Of a DNA stretch of 52,244 nt, positions 1 to 44,546 are shown one piece after another (within the stretch, counting starts at the first letter, position 1; each line of letters opens with the position of its first letter). Made by a program: the position numbers and the translations under genes. The notes under the pieces are model-generated. The model saw only the letters and a program-made list of their open reading frames with translations. It had not been told where the DNA came from and made no database searches. The stretch comes from an uncultured Bacilli bacterium (GTDB lineage Bacteria; Bacillota_I; Bacilli_A; RF39; UBA660), in NCBI GenBank assembly GCA_944332005.1, contig CALVJD010000027.1:1-52244 (forward strand), given 5' to 3'.

Positions 1-1362
1 TTAAATCATTGGATGGAAGATTGTCATGATTGGTGTATTTCTCGTCAATTATGGTGGGGACATCGTATTCCTGCTTGGTATCGTGGTGATGAGATTTATG
101 TTGGTGTAGAGGCACCTAAGGGAGATGGTTGGGTACAAGATCAGGATGTACTAGATACTTGGTTCAGTAGTGCATTATGGCCTTTTAGTACGCTTGGTTG
201 GCCAAAAGATACGGATTTACTGAAGCGATATTTTCCTAATGATATTTTAGTAACCGGATACGATATTATCTTTTTCTGGGTATGTCGTATGGTTTTTCAA
301 TCATTGGAATTTACTGGTAAGAGACCTTTTAAAGAATGTTTAATTCATGGACTTATCCGTGATAAAGAAGGACGTAAGATGAGTAAATCACTTGGTAATG
401 GAGTTGATCCAATGGATGTGATTGAAACTTATGGATGTGACGCTCTTCGTTATTTCTTAGCGACAAGCAGTGCACCAGGTCAAGACTTGCGTTACGATGA
501 AGAAAAAGTAAAAGCAACATGGAATTTTATCAATAAATTGTGGAATGCAAGTCGTTTTGTACTTATGAATGTCGAAAATTCCGCTTGCGATCGATTTGAT
601 CATCTTTCAATATCTGATCAATGGATTTTGACCAAATTGAATAAGACAATTGAAAAAGTTCGTAATCATATGGATAAATATGAATTCAATGTCGTAGGTA
701 GTGAATTATATAGCTTTATTTGGGATGATTTTTGTGATTGGTATATTGAACTTGCAAAGATCAATATGAATGAGACAACAAAAACGGTACTTGTTTATGT
801 ATTAGAATCTATTTTGAAGATGTTACATCCGTTCATGCCATATGTAACCGAAGAAATCTATATGATGTTGCCACATCATGGTGAATCGATTATGATAAGT
901 TCTTATCCAGTTTATCAAAAAAAGCAAGTGTTTATGGATAAAACACAAGAATTAGAAGAATTAATTGCTTTTATTGTAAAAGTACGTGCATGTAAATTAG
1001 AAAATAGTATTCCAAAGGATGCGAAAGTATATTTGCATGGAAATCATGAAGATATTTTACTAAAATTATTGAAAATAGCTCCTGAAAATCGTCTTTTTGA
1101 AAAAATGGGAAATGGTATTGAAGTAATGAGTAACGGATACGAAATAGCTTTCTATTTTGAGATCAAAGTTGATCAAGAAGAAGAGCAAAGGAAGTTATTA
1201 GAGGAACAAAGTCGTCTTATAAGTTCTATAGAACGCAGGCGTAAATTACTTTCCAATCCTGGATATTTAGCAAAAGCTCCAGCATCGATCATCGAGCAGG
1301 AACGAGCTAATTTGGCAAAAGAAGAGGAATCATTACAAAATATAAAAGAGAAACTTGTATAA
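1..1362 (+). CDS. valS: valine--tRNA ligase, C-terminal ~450 aa (5' end lies outside the window)
   Basis: The frame is open from base 1. It has the class I KMSKS motif ([10 protein letters not shown]), [14 protein letters not shown], and a C-terminal coiled coil typical of ValRS. Confidence 0.95.
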
Positions 1363-1445
1363 AACATTTCTTTTTGTTTACAATAATAATAGCGAGCCAT
1401 AATTTACCACATTTTACGTAAAATCGTAAAAAATGTCGAATACTG

Positions 1446-1475
1446 TTGACTGGAAACTCTAAAATGTGGTATATT
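1446..1475 (+). promoter_or_regulatory. sigma-A type promoter for the prepilin gene
   Basis: TTGACT (1446-1451), an 18-nt spacer, then an extended -10 TGgTATATT (1467-1475). Confidence 0.5.
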
Positions 1476-1509
1476 GTAATCGTAGAAAAAAATAGAGGAG
1501 GGAAATGAA

Positions 1510-1878
1510 ATGAAAGCAAATAAGGGATTTACCTTAATTGAGTTATTAGCTGTTATCGTTATTTTAGCTGTAATCGCATTAATTGCTACACCATTAATTA
1601 TGAATGTAATTAATGACGCTAAAAGAGGTGCTGCTATGGATGGTGCTTATTATTACCTTGATGCTGTAGAAAACAAAATCATGGTAGATATGATTAGCAA
1701 TCCTTCTGGAAGTGTTGTTACATCAGCTGACCATACTTTTGCAAGTGTAAAAGGTACTGCTCCAACAAGTGCTTCATTAACAATTTCAAGTGGTGTTGTA
1801 ACTGGTGGAACTATTACAGTTGATGGTTATACATTCACTGTTGGTGCTAATGGAACTTTAACAGAATCACGTGCATAG
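1510..1878 (+). CDS. prepilin-type N-terminal cleavage/methylation domain protein (type IV pilin / pseudopilin-like), 122 aa
   Basis: It has a class III signal, MKANKG/FTLIELLAVIVILAVIALIA, with Glu at +5. The C-terminal region is Ser/Thr/Gly-rich. A GGAGG RBS lies upstream. Confidence 0.8.
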   Translation: MKANKGFTLIELLAVIVILAVIALIATPLIMNVINDAKRGAAMDGAYYYLDAVENKIMVDMISNPSGSVVTSADHTFASVKGTAPTSASLTISSGVVTGGTITVDGYTFTVGANGTLTESRA

Positions 1879-1893
1879 TTTCATTCAACAAAA

Positions 1894-1921
1894 AAGGTAG
1901 TGAAAGCTATCTTTTTTTTTT
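1894..1921 (+). terminator. intrinsic terminator after the prepilin gene
   Basis: AAGGTAG / CTATCTT stem (one G-U pair), 6-nt loop, followed by about 10 T. Confidence 0.7.
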
Positions 1922-1965
1922 GATTTCCTGTATAATGTATGACAGATGATGAATGAGGTAGATTT

Positions 1966-2898
1966 ATGAAGATGATTTCAATTGTAGTTCCTTGTTATAA
2001 TGAAGAGGAAGCGTTACCATATTTTTATGATGAGATTACTAAAGTTGTCAAAACAATGAAAAAGATAAATTTTGAGTTTTTGTTTATCAACGACGGTTCA
2101 AAGGATAAAACGTTAGAGGTGTTACGTACACTAGCTCAAAAAGATAAACGAGTACGTTATGTTTCTTTTTCACGTAATTTTGGAAAAGAAGCGGGGATGT
2201 ATGCTGGTTTAAAGGAAGCTCATGGTGATTATGTAGCAATTATGGATGCAGATTTACAAGACCCACCATCTTTATTGCCAGAGATGTATCATGCTGTTAC
2301 AGAAGAAGGATATGATAGTGCAGCTACCCGTCGTGTGACACGTGCTGGAGAACCGCCTATTCGTAGTTTTTTTGCCAGATGTTTTTATAAACTAATCAAT
2401 CGTATTTCGAAAGCGGATATTGTCGATGGGGCGCGTGATTTTCGTCTTATGTCTCGCCAAATGGTCGATGCGATTCTTTCTATGACAGAATATAATCGTT
2501 TTTCGAAAGGGATCTTTGGTTGGGTTGGATTTGAAACCAAATGGATTGAATTTGAAAATGTCGAACGTGTAGCTGGAGAGACAAAATGGTCTTTTTGGAA
2601 ACTATTCTTATATTCTCTAGATGGGATCGTTGCTTTTTCAACAGTACCTCTTTCCATTGCTTTTGTTATGGGAATTTTGTTTTGTTTTATTGCGATTGCT
2701 TTTATCGTTGTTCGTACCATCATGTTTGGAGATCCTACTAGTGGTTGGCCATCACTCGTTTGTATTATTTTTTTAGTAAGTGGTGTTCAGTTGTGTTGTT
2801 TAGGAATTATGGGACAATATTTATCTAAGACTTATTTAGAGACGAAGAAAAGACCTATTTATATTGTAAAAGAGACAGAACTTGATCATAAGGAGTAG
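1966..2898 (+). CDS. family 2 glycosyltransferase, polyprenyl-phosphate sugar synthase type (GtrB/CsbB-like)
   Basis: The N-terminus reads SIVVPCYNEE...INDGSKD...DADLQDPP. Two C-terminal TM helices match the GtrB/CsbB architecture. Confidence 0.85.
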   Translation: MKMISIVVPCYNEEEALPYFYDEITKVVKTMKKINFEFLFINDGSKDKTLEVLRTLAQKDKRVRYVSFSRNFGKEAGMYAGLKEAHGDYVAIMDADLQDPPSLLPEMYHAVTEEGYDSAATRRVTRAGEPPIRSFFARCFYKLINRISKADIVDGARDFRLMSRQMVDAILSMTEYNRFSKGIFGWVGFETKWIEFENVERVAGETKWSFWKLFLYSLDGIVAFSTVPLSIAFVMGILFCFIAIAFIVVRTIMFGDPTSGWPSLVCIIFLVSGVQLCCLGIMGQYLSKTYLETKKRPIYIVKETELDHKE

Positions 2899-2903
2899 TT
2901 TTT

Positions 2904-5882
2904 ATGAAAAAGGTAAATAATTTTTTAAATGAAAAAAAAGGATATTTTCTATCTTTTTTCATTCCTTTACTTGTATTAGTATTTCTTTTTACAACGATGA
3001 AGGTGTTCTTTTTTGACAAGTATAATTTGTTAATTTCGGATATGTTTGGGCAGTATCATCCATTCTTTCAATATTTAAAAGATGCTTTATTAGGTGATCA
3101 GTCTTTTGCATATTCGTCCTCTCTAGGATTAGGAAGTGGTATGATTGGTACCATTGCCTATTATTTAATTAGTCCATTTAATTTGTTGATTCTTTTGTTT
3201 TCCGACGAGAAAATGGTTTTGGCAATGCAACTTATCATCGTATTGAAAATTAGTATGTGTGGATTGACGATGTTCACTTATTTAAAACATCATTATCCAA
3301 AGCAAAGCAATCTTAAATTATTGATTTTCTCTAGTTCCTATGCGTTAATGGGATATATAGCATGTTATTATTTTCATATTATGTGGTTAGATGGCATTTA
3401 TCTATTACCACTTGTATGTTTGGGAATCGATGTTATTTTGTCAAAGCGAAAACCGGTTTTGTATGGAGTAACATTATTTTTATCTATCCTATGTAATTAT
3501 TATATTGGATATATGATCTGTATTTTTGCCGTCATTTATTTTCTTTATCGTTTGTTTTTAAATTTCCGTTGGCATAAAGATAAAGCCAAAATGATAAAAG
3601 CGATCATTCAATTTGGAATCACTTCTTTGCTTTCCGGACTATCTACAGCTATTATTTTAGTTCCTACATTTTTTTCTATGTTAGAAACGAGTAAAATGAT
3701 GGGAATCGGTGATTTAGAACCTTTTACGTTTCACTTTCCATTTATAACTTATATTTCAAAACTTGTTTTAGGATCTCATAACCAAGCTGATATTTTAGTG
3801 AAAAATGGTTGTGTAATTTATTGTGGTACCATTGTCTTTATTTTGTCGCTTCTTTATTTTTTGAATCCAAAGTTTAAGAGAAAAGAAAAATGGTGTACTT
3901 TTTTTGTAATATTATTTTTTCTATGTAGTTTAAGTAATAATTATTTGAATTTGTTCTGGCATGTTGGAACAGAACCTGTTTTCTTTTTTGATCGTTTTAC
4001 TTTTTTGTATTGCTTTTTTCTCATTATCATTGCAGCTCGTTCCTTTTTCGAAATTCGTTCCTTAAAGCCAATTCATTTTTGGATTCTGACTCCCATTTTA
4101 CCAATCTTGTTTTTATTCCTTTTCTTTTTTTCTATTCCTTATTTAAAAACATATGCTATTTATATTACAGTTGCCTTTTATTTTATATATTTATTGTTAT
4201 TGTTATGTTATGTAAAATATCGAGATTCGAAAATTCATCGTTTGCTTGATTGGATGATTTTGGGACTTGTCATAGGGGAGCTGGTGCTTAACTTTCATTT
4301 AGGAGTACAAGATTTTAACCTTCAAACACAAAAGGAAAATTATGATAGTTTTGCGTTTATGGAACAAGTGAAAAACGAAATAAATGAAAAGGATAATGAT
4401 TTATTTTATCGAATGGAAACGCAAAATAGTTACTCTTCGAATGACGGTTTATTATTTGGATATCCAGGGGTTAGTGTATTTGCGTCGACGGTTCAAAAAG
4501 ATATGGCAAATGTCTATAAAAACTTTGGTTTTCAAGGTCAAGATTATACATTTCAATATCAAAGTGGAACGACACCTGTCGTCGATTCCTTATTGGGATT
4601 AAAATATTTGATAGGCGTTGATATTCCTTACTATGATGCAATGGCGTCTTTTCGTTTTTCGTCATACCGTGGTTTTTTTTACGGATTATCAGAAACGGAA
4701 TATGATCTTTATCAGAATTCTTATGCATTGCCATTAGGTTTTCTGACAAGGAACGACGTTAAAATGTTTGGGCAGAAGTTTTTAGATATTGATAATAAAA
4801 ATTATTTTACCTATCAGAATTTTCTATTACAAATTATGACGGGATTAGACGAAGAAGTTTTTAAACCAATTTCCATGATAAAAGAAGATGATAATAGATA
4901 TAAAATAAAAGTGGAAAATGATCAAGATTTTTATTTAACATTGTTTGCTGATTTTTATTTTTATCAAGATCTTCAGATAGAAATAAAAGTCAATGGTGAG
5001 GTTATTGCTAATATACAGTATCCAGATATTCCCAATTATATTTTTATTGAAAATTCTAGTCAAATAGGAGAAGAAATTGAATTAGAAATCAATAGTGAGT
5101 TACCATATCAAATGATTCTTTATTCTTTCGATTTAGATGCTTTTCAAAAACATATTGAAGAATTGAAGCAACAACCAATGGAACTATTTAGTTATCAAGA
5201 TGGATATGTGAAAGGAAAAGTGACGGTAACCTCAGAAAAGAATGTGTTATTTACTTCAATTCCTTATGAAGAAGGATGGCAAATTAAAGTAGATGGTAAG
5301 AAAGTAGAAGGCTTAAAACTGGCTGAAGGATTATTAGGAGTCGAACTAACCGAAGGGGAACACATTGTTGAGTTTACTTATCATGTGCCAGGATTATTAC
5401 AAGGGTTTGTGATTTCTTTTATCAGTATTTTACTAGGAATATGGTATTATAAGAAAAGAGATCTGATTGATACTCAGCTTGCCAATTTCTATTTGAAACA
5501 TGAAGAAATTTGGAACTATTTAATCGTTGGTGCTTTGACAACGGTTGTCAATGTAGTGGTATATGCGATTTTCACCAAACTATTATCTATTCATTATATG
5601 GTAAGCACGGTAATCGCTTGGATTTTATCGGTGTTATTCGCCTATGTGGCAAATAAAAAGGTAGTTTTTAAAAGTAAGGTAAAAGATCGCAAAGATTTAT
5701 GGAAAGAAATAGAAAATTTCTTTCAATTCCGTGTTCTTTCCTTATTCCTAGAAATGGGTTCGATGTATCTTTTGGTTAGCCTTTTATCTGTTCAAGATTT
5801 ATTATCTAAAATTTTGGTTAATATTATGGTGATTATAGCAAACTATTTTTTCAGTAAATTATTTGTGTTTAAAAAGGAGTGA
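2904..5882 (+). CDS. YfhO-family polytopic membrane glycosyltransferase fused to a C-terminal GtrA-like domain (992 aa)
   Basis: The N-terminal ~850 aa are YfhO-like, with many TM segments and a QYHPFFQYL...YYLISPFNLL start. The last ~130 aa (about 5481-5882) have four TM segments with GtrA-like character (YLIVGALTTVVNV...ANYFFSKLFVF). Confidence 0.75.
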   Translation: MKKVNNFLNEKKGYFLSFFIPLLVLVFLFTTMKVFFFDKYNLLISDMFGQYHPFFQYLKDALLGDQSFAYSSSLGLGSGMIGTIAYYLISPFNLLILLFSDEKMVLAMQLIIVLKISMCGLTMFTYLKHHYPKQSNLKLLIFSSSYALMGYIACYYFHIMWLDGIYLLPLVCLGIDVILSKRKPVLYGVTLFLSILCNYYIGYMICIFAVIYFLYRLFLNFRWHKDKAKMIKAIIQFGITSLLSGLSTAIILVPTFFSMLETSKMMGIGDLEPFTFHFPFITYISKLVLGSHNQADILVKNGCVIYCGTIVFILSLLYFLNPKFKRKEKWCTFFVILFFLCSLSNNYLNLFWHVGTEPVFFFDRFTFLYCFFLIIIAARSFFEIRSLKPIHFWILTPILPILFLFLFFFSIPYLKTYAIYITVAFYFIYLLLLLCYVKYRDSKIHRLLDWMILGLVIGELVLNFHLGVQDFNLQTQKENYDSFAFMEQVKNEINEKDNDLFYRMETQNSYSSNDGLLFGYPGVSVFASTVQKDMANVYKNFGFQGQDYTFQYQSGTTPVVDSLLGLKYLIGVDIPYYDAMASFRFSSYRGFFYGLSETEYDLYQNSYALPLGFLTRNDVKMFGQKFLDIDNKNYFTYQNFLLQIMTGLDEEVFKPISMIKEDDNRYKIKVENDQDFYLTLFADFYFYQDLQIEIKVNGEVIANIQYPDIPNYIFIENSSQIGEEIELEINSELPYQMILYSFDLDAFQKHIEELKQQPMELFSYQDGYVKGKVTVTSEKNVLFTSIPYEEGWQIKVDGKKVEGLKLAEGLLGVELTEGEHIVEFTYHVPGLLQGFVISFISILLGIWYYKKRDLIDTQLANFYLKHEEIWNYLIVGALTTVVNVVVYAIFTKLLSIHYMVSTVIAWILSVLFAYVANKKVVFKSKVKDRKDLWKEIENFFQFRVLSLFLEMGSMYLLVSLLSVQDLLSKILVNIMVIIANYFFSKLFVFKKE

Positions 5883-40765: not shown

Positions 40766-40794
40766 TTGACTTATCCAATTTCTCGTCTTATAAT
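40766..40794 (+). promoter_or_regulatory. sigma-A type promoter of nrdD
   Basis: TTGACT (40766-40771), a 17-nt spacer, TATAAT (40789-40794). Confidence 0.65.
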
Positions 40795-40827: not shown

Positions 40828-43152
40828 GTGACAGAAGTGATGGATAAATTAGAAACGTTAGTCGTTGTGAAACGAAATGGCAAAAAAGTGGACTTTGATG
40901 GAACGAAAATTGCACTGGCAATCAAAAAGGGATTTGATAGCACGATTCGCAGCGATGACGATGAGGCAACAGAAATGGCAACGGCAAAAGCGAAATATAC
41001 AGAAAAAGATATTAATAAAGTGTATCAAAAAGTGATTGCCGATATCGAAAAGAATTATGAGGAAAACGATAAGATTAAAATTGAAGAGATTCAAGATATG
41101 ATCGAAGATCAACTTAAGAAACAAGGATATGATGATGTATATAAATCATTTTCCGAATATCGTGAAAGAAGAAATCAATCTCGTCAAGTCTTCAGTGATG
41201 AGAAGAAGTTACATAAATTTTTAAAGACCATTGAGGGATTGGGATTAAAATCAGCTCACGAAGAAGATAATAAAAGAGAAAATGCCAATGTCGATGGTGA
41301 TACGGCAATGGGAACGATGCTTCAATATGGAAGTACGGTTTCCAAAGAATTTGCCAAATCTTATTTGATGAAAGCAAAGTTTGCGGAGGCTCATGATAGT
41401 GGCGCAATTCATATTCACGATATGGATTTCTTGCCAATGGGCACAACGACTTGTTGTCAAATCGATTTAAATAAATTATTTAAAAATGGATTTTCTACTG
41501 GTCATGGTCATTTGCGTGAACCGAATGATATTATGTCTTATAGTGCGCTTGCAGCAATTGCAATTCAATCGAATCAGAATGATCAACATGGTGGTCAAGC
41601 AATCCCGGCATTCGACTATTTTATGGCTCCTGGAGTTGTTAAGACATTCCGCAAACAATTTAAACAACAAATTGCTGATTTGTTAGATTATAGTGGCTTT
41701 GGAACGTTTATCAATATGGATCGTGTGGCACGAGAGATTGATCGCTTGAATTCGATTGAATTTGATATTCGTATGTTTGATGCACTTGCAAAGGATTCGG
41801 ATGAAGTGAAACATATTTTTGAAGTTTCTTATGAGAAGGCATTGAAAAAAACGGATCGTATTACTTATCAAGCAATGGAAGCATTTATTCATAATTTAAA
41901 TACGATGCATTCGAGAGCAGGTGCACAAGTACCTTTCTCTTCTATTAATTTCGGAACCGATACATCTGCTGAAGGTAGGATGGTTATGAAAAACTATCTT
42001 CTTGCAACAGATGCTGGATTAGGACATAGCGAGACTCCTATTTTTCCCATTTCTATTTTTAAAGTAAAAGAAGGAGTTAACTATAATCCTGAAGATCCTA
42101 ACTATGATTTATTCAAGTTATCTTGTAAAGTATCTGCAAAGCGTTTGTTTCCTAACTTTTCCTTCATCGATGCGCCGTTTAATTTGGAAGGATATGTTCC
42201 AGGAGATTATCGTACAGAAGTTGGGTATATGGGATGTCGTACTAGGGTACTTGCGAACCATGTTGATCCAGATAAAGCGATTACACCTGGTCGTGGAAAT
42301 TTATCTTTTACCTCTATCAATTTACCTCGTCTAGGTATTAAACATGGTATACTTCATGGAGAGATGGCCAATATGCAAGCATTTTATGAGGAGTTAGATG
42401 AATTACTAGAACTAGTAAAAGATCAATTATTAGAACGTTTTGAAATTCAATGTAATCGTCATGTCTATAATTTTCCATTTTTGATGGGACAAGGAGTATG
42501 GATCGATGGAGAAAAATTAAAACCAACAGATCGTTTACGTAGGGTGTTAAAACATGGTACTTTGACGATTGGATTCATTGGTTTGGCAGAATGTTTGAAG
42601 GCATTGACAGGAAAACATCATGGGGAAAGTGCAGAAAGTCAAAAATTAGGACTTGAGATCATTAGTCATATGCGCCAGAAATGTGATGAATTCAGCGAGA
42701 AATATAATTTGAATTTCTCATTGATTGCAACCCCGGCGGAAGGATTAAGTGGAAGATTTGTCAATATCGATAAAGCGATTTATGGAAAGATTAAAGGTGT
42801 TACAGATCGAGCTTATTATACGAACTCTTTCCATATTCCGGTTTACTATCATATTTCGATCAATGATAAAATTAAATTAGAAGCTCCTTATCATGCTCTT
42901 ACCAATGGTGGTCATATCACTTATGTAGAATTAGATGGCGATACTGCTTTAAATGTAGAAGCGTTTGAAAAAGTGGTACGTCTTATGAAAGAAGCAGGAA
43001 TTGGTTATGGAGCAATTAATCATCCTGTCGATCGTGATCCTGTGTGTGGATATGTAGGTGTGATTGGTGATGTATGTCCTGGCTGTGGTAGACGTGCTTA
43101 CGAAGGAGTTCCAGTTGAAGTGATTAATAATTTAGAATATTGTCATAAATGA
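40828..43152 (+). CDS. nrdD: anaerobic ribonucleoside-triphosphate reductase (class III), large polypeptide ending before the glycyl-radical motif
   Basis: N-terminal ATP-cone (VVKRNGKKVDFDGTKI) and an NrdD core. The C-terminal zinc site is VCGY...CPGCG. No RxxGY motif occurs before the TGA at 43150. GTG start 8 nt after GGAGG. Confidence 0.9.
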   Translation: MTEVMDKLETLVVVKRNGKKVDFDGTKIALAIKKGFDSTIRSDDDEATEMATAKAKYTEKDINKVYQKVIADIEKNYEENDKIKIEEIQDMIEDQLKKQGYDDVYKSFSEYRERRNQSRQVFSDEKKLHKFLKTIEGLGLKSAHEEDNKRENANVDGDTAMGTMLQYGSTVSKEFAKSYLMKAKFAEAHDSGAIHIHDMDFLPMGTTTCCQIDLNKLFKNGFSTGHGHLREPNDIMSYSALAAIAIQSNQNDQHGGQAIPAFDYFMAPGVVKTFRKQFKQQIADLLDYSGFGTFINMDRVAREIDRLNSIEFDIRMFDALAKDSDEVKHIFEVSYEKALKKTDRITYQAMEAFIHNLNTMHSRAGAQVPFSSINFGTDTSAEGRMVMKNYLLATDAGLGHSETPIFPISIFKVKEGVNYNPEDPNYDLFKLSCKVSAKRLFPNFSFIDAPFNLEGYVPGDYRTEVGYMGCRTRVLANHVDPDKAITPGRGNLSFTSINLPRLGIKHGILHGEMANMQAFYEELDELLELVKDQLLERFEIQCNRHVYNFPFLMGQGVWIDGEKLKPTDRLRRVLKHGTLTIGFIGLAECLKALTGKHHGESAESQKLGLEIISHMRQKCDEFSEKYNLNFSLIATPAEGLSGRFVNIDKAIYGKIKGVTDRAYYTNSFHIPVYYHISINDKIKLEAPYHALTNGGHITYVELDGDTALNVEAFEKVVRLMKEAGIGYGAINHPVDRDPVCGYVGVIGDVCPGCGRRAYEGVPVEVINNLEYCHK

Positions 43153-43165
43153 AGGAGGAAAAATT

Positions 43166-43339
43166 ATGAAAAATGAAGAAAAAGTAAGAGAAGGAAAGAA
43201 AGTTGGAGAAGGTGTAGGATTCGAAAGAATTCGTCGTATCACTGGGTATTTGGTAGGAACAGTAGATCGCTTTAATAATGCGAAACGTGCAGAAGTAGAA
43301 GATCGTGTAAAACACGGATTTGCGAAAAATGCGAATTAA
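43166..43339 (+). CDS. 57-aa ORF encoding the class III RNR glycyl-radical motif (below the ORF-track cut-off)
   Basis: Hand translation gives MKNEEKVREGKKVGEGVGFERIRRITGYLVGTVDRFNNAKRAEVEDRVKHGFAKNAN. RRITGYL...FN.AK..E...RVKH matches the NrdD C-terminal radical region. AAGGAGG lies 6 nt upstream of the ATG, and the ORF is in a different frame from nrdD. Confidence 0.75.
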   Translation: MKNEEKVREGKKVGEGVGFERIRRITGYLVGTVDRFNNAKRAEVEDRVKHGFAKNAN

Positions 43340-43886
43340 ATTAGCAGCTCCTTTACAATCCGATAGTATCGTCGATGGGGAAGGAATTCGAGCTGTTCTT
43401 TGGACGCAAGGATGTGCCCATCATTGTCCTGGATGTCATAATGCTGAAACTTGGGATTTTGATGGTGGATACTGGGAAGATGTCGATACAATCAAAAAAG
43501 AATTACAATCCTTAGTTGGTCAAGATGGTATTACGTTTAGTGGTGGAGATCCTATGTATCAAATTAAGCCTTGTTTGGAAATTGCTAAGTATGCACATGA
43601 AATTGGTTTGAATGTATGGTGTTATACAGGATATACGTATGAAGAATTATTGACATTAGACGATCCTAATTTGATGGAGTTCTTAGAGAATATTGATGTT
43701 TTAGTCGATGGTCCGTTTATTTTAGAGGAACGTAGTTTGGATCTTTACTTTAAAGGCTCCAGAAATCAAAGAGTTTTGGATATGAAAAAGACATTGCAGG
43801 AGAAGAGACCAGTTATTGTTTCCAAATATCAGGATGCAAAGAAAATTACTCCATTATATAAGAAAGATAAAGATATTTATGTATAA
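43329..43886 (+). CDS. nrdG: anaerobic ribonucleotide reductase activating protein (radical SAM)
   Basis: CAHHCPGCHN cluster motif and position downstream of nrdD. The ATG at 43329 overlaps the end of the small ORF. Confidence 0.9.
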   Translation: MRIKLAAPLQSDSIVDGEGIRAVLWTQGCAHHCPGCHNAETWDFDGGYWEDVDTIKKELQSLVGQDGITFSGGDPMYQIKPCLEIAKYAHEIGLNVWCYTGYTYEELLTLDDPNLMEFLENIDVLVDGPFILEERSLDLYFKGSRNQRVLDMKKTLQEKRPVIVSKYQDAKKITPLYKKDKDIYV

Positions 43887-43887
43887 T

Positions 43888-43917
43888 AAAATAGCTACTA
43901 ATAATAGTAGCTATTTT
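43888..43917. terminator. bidirectional terminator
   Basis: 12-bp stem AAAATAGCTACT / AGTAGCTATTTT. Confidence 0.75.
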
Positions 43918-44546
43918 ATTAATGTTTTTACTTTTTCATTTTCATTCTTAGATGAATTTTGCTTTTGCAACAATTTTTTCTCTAGTTGCTTAAAAGATCT
44001 CATGTGATTAAAATAAGTTAATAATTCAGTTTGATAGTTACGTTCATATTTTTTATCGTTAGGATCATAATGAATTTTTCGAGGATAAAGGTTTTCAGTA
44101 TATCGATAAACCATTTTTCCATTTTGTAGAGTAAATACTATACGTTTTTTGTCAGTGGAAAGAGCAATATTATTATTGGAATCGATACGAATTGAACCAT
44201 CTCCAGTTTGGAGAGTATCTTCTAAGCAATAATAGATTTCACGAGTATTTAGATTTTGACTATAAAGATAATAGGAACTTCCATTATCAAATTCAAAGAC
44301 AAGTTTTTCCTGATTGCGAGTTAATGTTAAATAATCGATTTGTAACATATTTAAATAAAGGGGTTCGTCTATCAGTTCCATACATTTTATTTTTTTTATA
44401 ATTTTATTTGTAAGACGTTTAATTTTTAGTTGAGCTTGTCGATAAGTATTGAAAAGTTGTTCATTCTCTGGCATATCGTGTGTTTTTTTAGATAAGGATT
44501 GGATCGTTGTTTTTAAAGTTGTTAAGTTTGGAATGATATGTTTCAT
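43911..44546 (-). CDS. hypothetical protein
   Basis: 211-aa ORF. No family recognised. Confidence 0.5.
   Translation of the reverse strand: MKHIIPNLTTLKTTIQSLSKKTHDMPENEQLFNTYRQAQLKIKRLTNKIIKKIKCMELIDEPLYLNMLQIDYLTLTRNQEKLVFEFDNGSSYYLYSQNLNTREIYYCLEDTLQTGDGSIRIDSNNNIALSTDKKRIVFTLQNGKMVYRYTENLYPRKIHYDPNDKKYERNYQTELLTYFNHMRSFKQLEKKLLQKQNSSKNENEKVKTLIK

Follow-up and report, generated by a model that had tools for sequence, protein, structure and literature searches.

The stretch of DNA considered here is contig CALVJD010000027.1 of assembly GCA_944332005.1, derived from an uncultured Bacilli bacterium (RF39; UBA660), whose 52,244 nucleotides (nt) were analyzed in full and are hereafter called the window, all position numbers below being those of the window. 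Class III ribonucleotide reductase (RNR), the product of nrdD, is an oxygen-sensitive supplier of DNA building blocks and a textbook glycyl-radical enzyme (GRE) that has been described as a single chain carrying its own radical domain. The window holds a plus-strand operon of three genes in which this chain appears to come in two pieces, namely, an nrdD whose product lacks the radical motif, a separate open reading frame (ORF) of 57 amino acids (aa) that carries it, and nrdG, which encodes the activase. The operon and its features are the following:

40766..40794, + strand: promoter-like site upstream of nrdD (TTGACT, 17 nt, TATAAT) with 11 of 12 consensus matches, a match to the consensus alone that does not imply function
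40828..43152, + strand: nrdD, large subunit, 774 aa, with a GTG start preceded by AGGAGG and a TGA stop at 43150-43152
42226..42246, + strand: finger loop YMGCRTR (aa 467-473) with the thiyl-radical cysteine; MGCR is present in 120 of the 120 closest homologues
43030..43089, + strand: zinc-ribbon segment DRDPVCGYVGVIGDVCPGCG (aa 735-754), placed by alignments to 8P23 and to 1H78 of phage T4
43090..43149, + strand: C-terminal tail RRAYEGVPVEVINNLEYCHK (aa 755-774), degenerate, glycine-less relic of a radical loop (hhalign, MAFFT and tail length classes)
43152..43158, + strand: Shine-Dalgarno sequence AAGGAGG, 7 nt upstream of the start of the small ORF and sharing the last base of the nrdD stop codon
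43166..43339, + strand: small ORF, putative radical subunit, 57 aa, with its own ATG (profile matches and alignment to 8P23)
43244..43246, + strand: codon GGG of the predicted radical glycine, Gly27 of RRITGY, which aligns with the RITGY motif of Prevotella copri that holds Gly711
43329..43886, + strand: nrdG, activase, 185 aa (TIGR02491, E-value 2.6e-43), for which ATG 43329 is the most likely start and TTG 43320 an alternative
43884..43921, + strand: terminator-like hairpin at the operon end

A first-pass annotation of this sequence had claimed that the 774-aa nrdD product ends at TGA 43150-43152 without the RxxGY motif, which would instead reside on the 57-aa ORF, and both the ORFs and the profile matches agree with this. 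The AAGGAGG and the ATG that it assigned to the small ORF stand as well, as does its remark that the frame of the small ORF, shifted by +1 from that of nrdD, is already open from 43136 (14 nt ahead of the nrdD stop), although the distances it gave were each off by one: the gap between the nrdD stop and the ATG is 13 nt and not 14 nt, and the Shine-Dalgarno spacing is 7 nt and not 6 nt. Further downstream, nrdG overlaps the small ORF by 11 nt, its start at 43329 matching the equivalent gene-call starts in relatives, and its CxxxCxxC motif is found at 43413-43436, so that a dedicated activase is present right next to its presumable substrate. No terminator was found between nrdD and the small ORF, and an Rfam search of the whole window at gathering thresholds returned no matches, i.e., neither a riboswitch nor a known frameshift element.

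The way in which the two ORFs divide the NrdD models between them shows where the break is. The large ORF accounts for positions 3-714 of 746 in NCBIfam NF005497 (1030 bits versus a cut-off of 764) and positions 1-531 of 562 in Pfam NRDD (E-value 1.1e-189), possesses an ATP-cone (Pfam E-value 6.6e-15) and is recognized as an NrdD by its RNR/GRE barrel core, while the small ORF matches positions 711-744 of the former model (E-value 6.9e-12) and 533-562 of the latter (E-value 8.5e-8). The same division is seen against the P. copri NrdD structure (PDB 8P23), in which the alignment of the large ORF reaches residue 705 (CPKCGSH) and that of the small ORF spans residues 707-738, that is, the Gly711 loop and the C-terminal tail. 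As the order of elements in the P. copri glycyl-radical domain is zinc site, buried loop with Gly711 and C-terminal tail (PMC11226230), the break, judged from these alignments, is inside the glycyl-radical domain, the predicted zinc ribbon being on the large chain and the predicted radical loop and tail on the small one. No RxxGY is present at the C-terminus of the large ORF, a class III RNR feature thereby missing from the same polypeptide, and the only RxxGY of the operon is that of the small protein, which is made up of a variable K/E-rich leader (aa 1-12), VGEGVGFERIRRITGYLVGTVDRFNNAKRAEVEDRVKH and a short tail. Three of the four canonical zinc cysteines are present in the large ORF, the first one aligning to an aspartate, and this aspartate (HPVDRDPVCG, window 43030-43044) is found throughout the clade, its one-piece members included. 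The MGCR motif of the finger loop has the methionine that is typical of formate-type NrdD (PMC9669993).

The split is not a peculiarity of a single assembly. The stretch 43057-43332 is covered with zero gaps by contigs of four independent public runs, which come from chicken gut and from a synthetic community, and no indel is seen at the junction, where the first-pass annotation had thought that one might fuse the ORFs; an identical small protein in the same layout occurs in six independent metagenome assemblies, and the sister metagenome-assembled genome (MAG) GCA_944358455.1 has the same genes and the same neighbours. In one of the chicken-gut runs, a G>A change at 43151 turns the TGA of nrdD into TAA, by which the stop is kept.

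A scan of one genome per species yielded 492 confirmed loci, and in the best 80 of these, from which the layout figures were taken, approximately 64 show a shortened nrdD, a small ORF and nrdG in this order (nrdG went undetected within the stretch fetched for a few of them), nrdD is in one piece (785-824 aa) in eight, and an orphan small gene occurs in eleven. Carriers of the split locus include the isolate Bacterium 1XD42-1 (L013) and the complete genome CP091739.1. The two-ORF layout, the Shine-Dalgarno sequence and the separate start codon, the conservation of which in relatives the first-pass annotation had proposed to check, are thus retained across about 64 species-level genomes: the small ORF starts with ATG in 62 of the 64 split loci and with GTG in the other two, and a Shine-Dalgarno sequence of at least 4 nt precedes it in every one of them. 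The spacer between the two ORFs ranges from -1 to 298 nt in these loci, with the three relative frames occurring 18, 26 and 20 times, and at 41 of 63 loci the frame of the small ORF is closed beyond the stop of nrdD, so that a single frameshift could not fuse the two there; Mogibacterium has gaps of 254 and 445 nt at this place.

The protein-level comparisons point in the same direction. Among the 120 large-subunit clusters that come closest (76-98% identity), RxxGY is lacking in 118 and MGCR is present in all, and a search of 5.8 billion protein clusters with the small ORF gave at least 8000 matches, the best 120 of which are without exception 51-79 aa long, start with Met and consist of a variable K/E-rich leader followed by the nearly invariant core VGEGVGFERIRRITGYLVGTxDRFNNAKRAExxDRVKH. 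The 38-codon core of the small ORF shows a mean pS of 0.86, with synonymous sites saturated, and a pN of 0.13, so that purifying selection on it is strong. No model dedicated to this small protein was found in Pfam, NCBIfam or PHROGs, and it is annotated as “partial”, “hypothetical” or plain NrdD by its sources.

What, then, is the 20-aa tail with which the large chain ends past its zinc ribbon? In the one-piece relatives, CGRKEGETGVGFERIRRITGY follows immediately after the ribbon, and the split large subunits have at this place a conserved tail that falls into three length classes (approximately 20, 29-30 and 42-52 aa). Profile-profile alignment of these tails with the small proteins gave a probability of 88% (hhalign, P 3.2e-6), the long tails retain GEGV...L.GY and an EE.D[KR]V.H-like end (e.g., GEGVDVEVLKKLNGYKKD...EEADKVAHP in locus L056), and MAFFT repeatedly placed the tails against the radical loops that the small proteins and the fused relatives possess, because of which the tail in the window is recognized as a glycine-less relic of a radical loop. 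The suspicion of the first-pass annotation that the end of the large ORF is a decayed copy, left by a duplication, of what the small ORF encodes thereby gains support from the profile alignment. The lengths of the relic tail and of the small-protein leader are not correlated (Spearman -0.10). A cysteine pair (NCCK, NCDCK or CDCNH, and CGYCGD in the long tails), possibly a metal site or a redox pair, closes most of the relic tails, whereas the tail in the window (43135-43149) ends in YCHK with one cysteine, and a 98%-identical relative has CCNK.

The layout might have originated by duplication of the 3' end of nrdD, or by insertion of a free radical-loop gene downstream of it, with the copy in cis having decayed thereafter. 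In neighbour-joining trees, one-piece Ruminococcus and Oscillospiraceae forms are found beside split forms with long relics, and the short-relic Bacilli forms, including that of the window, are the most derived. Nested within the Bacilli split clade and adjoining the lineage of the window are two one-piece NrdDs, P0143 (L176:249-2648) and P0235, of 799 and 800 aa, respectively, which have CGRSEADGVKFERIRRITGY with neither relic nor leader, and P0143 is directly followed by nrdG and has a similar downstream neighbour. From their sequences, these two look like secondary re-fusions that a deletion between relic and small ORF would have produced, and the nesting of such fused forms suggests that the small protein and the domain in cis may be interchangeable.

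In comparison with the canonical one-piece class III RNRs (those of phage T4, E. coli and P. copri, 8P23), the system in the window shares the ATP-cone, the barrel, MGCR, the zinc ribbon, the RITGY loop with its tail and an adjacent NrdG, but differs in having the radical loop and tail on a separate 57-aa polypeptide, a large subunit that ends in a glycine-less loop relic and an aspartate in place of the first zinc cysteine. The likeness to GrcA/YfiD of E. coli and Y06I of phage T4, which the first-pass annotation had drawn for the former, holds in so far as these, too, are small stand-alone glycyl-radical loops homologous to the C-terminus of their partner enzyme, have phage-encoded versions, and are presumed to be activated by the activase of the partner and to dock in trans. 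The replaceable-spare role that came with this analogy does not carry over to the window, however, as the partner enzyme there is itself devoid of the glycine (such a role might suit orphan copies found elsewhere), and the small protein is also shorter, 57 aa versus 127 aa. It is outside the GrcA/YfiD family because it matches Pfam NRDD and not PF01228 (the Gly_radical family of pyruvate formate-lyase type), which had no match in either the small ORF or the orphans. An RNR catalytic chain distributed over two adjacent genes is also known as NrdJa/NrdJb of Pseudomonas aeruginosa, in so far as Crona et al. 2015 is represented by its citation in PMC9669993, but that enzyme is of the B12-dependent class, and no radical-bearing cofactor peptide is split off in it. 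Spare-part proteins are known for formate lyases only (PMC13450708, PMC8683613), with the possibility that they exist for other glycyl-radical enzymes having been voiced in 2021 (PMC8683613). Full-text searches, limited to the literature collection searched, returned no description of a split NrdD or of an NrdD-type spare part, and a two-piece class III RNR has apparently not yet been described.

We consider it very probable that the operon encodes a functional class III RNR of two polypeptides with a separate radical subunit, the small protein acting, as its sequence would have it, in trans with the large one. The 57-aa protein, translated from its own ribosome-binding site, would supply the Gly27 loop and the C-terminal tail with which NrdD normally ends; NrdG, the translation of which would be coupled to that of the small ORF, would abstract a hydrogen from Gly27 to generate the radical, be it on the free peptide or on the complex; and the Gly27 loop would then insert into the barrel of the large subunit beside Cys470, much as the covalent domain does in one-piece enzymes. 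Docking in trans is made plausible by the radical domain of P. copri NrdD being highly mobile, as it docks and undocks and is undocked in the state inhibited by deoxyadenosine triphosphate (PMC11226230). Catalysis itself would proceed as in the one-piece enzymes and would probably be formate-dependent, because the MGCR motif is present (PMC9669993). As the large subunit itself lacks the glycine, the small protein would have to be an obligate subunit and not only a spare. With the likely benefit in mind, the fate of GrcA/YfiD partners offers an analogy (PMC8683613, PMC13450708): a 6.5-kDa protein, and not an enzyme of about 830 aa, would need replacement after cleavage by oxygen. The small protein's Gly27 is the site at issue here.

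Oxygen is known to cut the chain at the radical glycine. Among the other explanations for the two ORFs, that of an indel introduced by sequencing or assembly, or of a pseudogene of recent origin, brought up by the first-pass annotation, has a next to negligible probability in view of the four runs that are gap-free over the junction, the TAA variant that keeps the stop, the agreement of six assemblies, the strong purifying selection (pS 0.86 versus pN 0.13) and the MGCR retained by all 120 closest large subunits. Its other suggestion, programmed frameshifting, would have a +1 shift within 43136-43149 yield a one-piece NrdD and make the two ORFs a mere decoding device, in favour of which the small-ORF frame is open from 43136 in the window; this is nevertheless highly improbable, since the spacers of the relatives extend up to 298 nt and occur in all three frames (with a 254-nt gap in Mogibacterium), 41 of 63 loci have the small frame closed past the stop of nrdD and every small ORF has a Shine-Dalgarno sequence and a start codon of its own. 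Artefact, pseudogene and programmed frameshifting are thus excluded as explanations for the layout because it is conserved, selected and identical across assemblies and runs.

More has to be said about two readings that accept the layout and dispute the function. The large ORF might be an inactive remnant and the small protein a GrcA-like spare for an intact NrdD encoded elsewhere in the genome, as orphan small genes without an adjacent nrdD do exist; against it, a search covering the 52-kb window found no second nrdD or radical-loop sequence, 118 of the 120 closest counterparts (76-98% identity) are equally shortened with MGCR and the ATP-cone intact, and the three-gene operon is conserved across about 64 species, and we regard this as very unlikely. 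It is very unlikely, too, that the small protein has no working radical and is a regulator or decoy that, for instance, titrates NrdG or occupies the barrel: phage-borne orphans could in principle interfere with the host NrdD in this manner, but nrdG is kept in the operon, the only RxxGY of which is on the small protein, the RITGY core is nearly invariant and the natural re-fusions restore a canonical NrdD. A split intein or protein ligation was also considered and rejected, the tail (20 aa) and the leader (approximately 12 aa) being too short and too variable. As for the two-polypeptide enzyme, several points weigh against it, among which the restriction of the nrdD search to the window is one. 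Production of the small protein, its binding to the large subunit and its activation by NrdG are all deduced from sequence; when the two chains were concatenated and modelled with AlphaFold2 (90-row alignment), the mean predicted local distance difference test score (pLDDT) was 67, falling below 50 over residues 732-831, and no docking could be read from the model; the one metatranscriptome with related nrdD sequence, from chicken gut, has contigs approximately 95% identical to nrdD, none of which crosses the junction; and the zinc ribbon, here cut from the glycine loop, has been described as stabilizing the glycyl radical structurally (PMC9669993).

Radical loops of this kind are not confined to nrdD operons. 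In IMG/VR, 459 viral contigs encode an NrdD-type radical-loop protein, and the best 80 of these (L093-L172) comprise 65 orphans (their fetched flanks, of up to 4 kb, hold neither nrdD nor nrdG), 12 uncertain cases and three split-type loci, with genes of phage-like appearance (tail-fibre-like, Bro-N, RtcB-like and ligase) being found next to the viral orphans (e.g., L099, L113, L121 and L142). The Bilophila wadsworthia orphan, which adjoins a C5 methylase and HicB, recurs with the same sequence in the viral set (L055, L104). One and the same genome, Anaerovoracaceae ruminal_MAG_303, has both a split locus (L019) and an orphan (L075), the orphan being within a conjugative element with genes for a type IV secretion system (T4SS) coupling protein, DUF5688, ArdC-like and TrbL-like proteins; L071 is grouped with this observation. 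The orphans show that the module moves and persists alone, in keeping with an action in trans. There is, in addition, a form of approximately 100 aa, in which an extra N-terminal domain of about 55 aa without a Pfam match precedes the FERIRRITGY core (L076, L084, L086, L089, L092 and L159, with a second type in L118, L160, L167 and L170); its carriers are viral contigs and MAGs of Ruminococcus and Oscillospiraceae, groups of which other MAGs have a one-piece nrdD. These proteins may be true GrcA-like spares.

Taken at its broadest, the proposal would be that NrdD-type radical loops constitute a widespread, unrecognized autonomous glycyl-radical family, serving as the exchangeable cartridge of a two-piece RNR in many gut anaerobes and, as phage, prophage and conjugative orphans, being supplied in trans to restore or boost the anaerobic synthesis of deoxynucleoside triphosphates (dNTPs) by the host after oxygen damage, which would make them the first spare-part system beyond pyruvate formate-lyase; the case for this wider proposal seems to us about evenly balanced. 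Were a natural, widespread two-chain RNR confirmed, a radical loop would be able to work in trans without an attached zinc ribbon, and a ready system for studying the encounter between activase and glycine would be at hand, because the substrate would be a free 6.5-kDa protein. It would also address the question, raised in the field, of whether spare parts exist beyond pyruvate formate-lyase (PMC8683613), and explain both the short “partial” or “hypothetical” nrdD annotations and the seemingly glycine-less NrdDs of gut metagenomes, while the phage-borne orphans point to a new class of auxiliary genes aimed at the host dNTP supply under fluctuating oxygen.

A few individual loci deserve a mention of their own. 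The orphan of Ca. Crickella equi (L014:3998-4159) is situated between genes for a Crp/Fnr-like regulator and a rubrerythrin, an oxidative-stress setting. On a metagenome contig of a close relative of the window (L174:1-1715), the gene call breaks nrdD into two pieces, of 183 and 388 aa, possibly owing to a frameshift or an assembly error. In Eggerthella phage EL753P1 (L091, OP172808.1, locus 626-4087), nrdD encodes 960 aa, interrupted by an intein in the finger loop (MGC|R) and ending in a tail of the relic type, and the small ORF, approximately 365 nt downstream, is broken in the record at RRI|TGY by an apparent 5-nt insertion near the repeated ATTTGACC.

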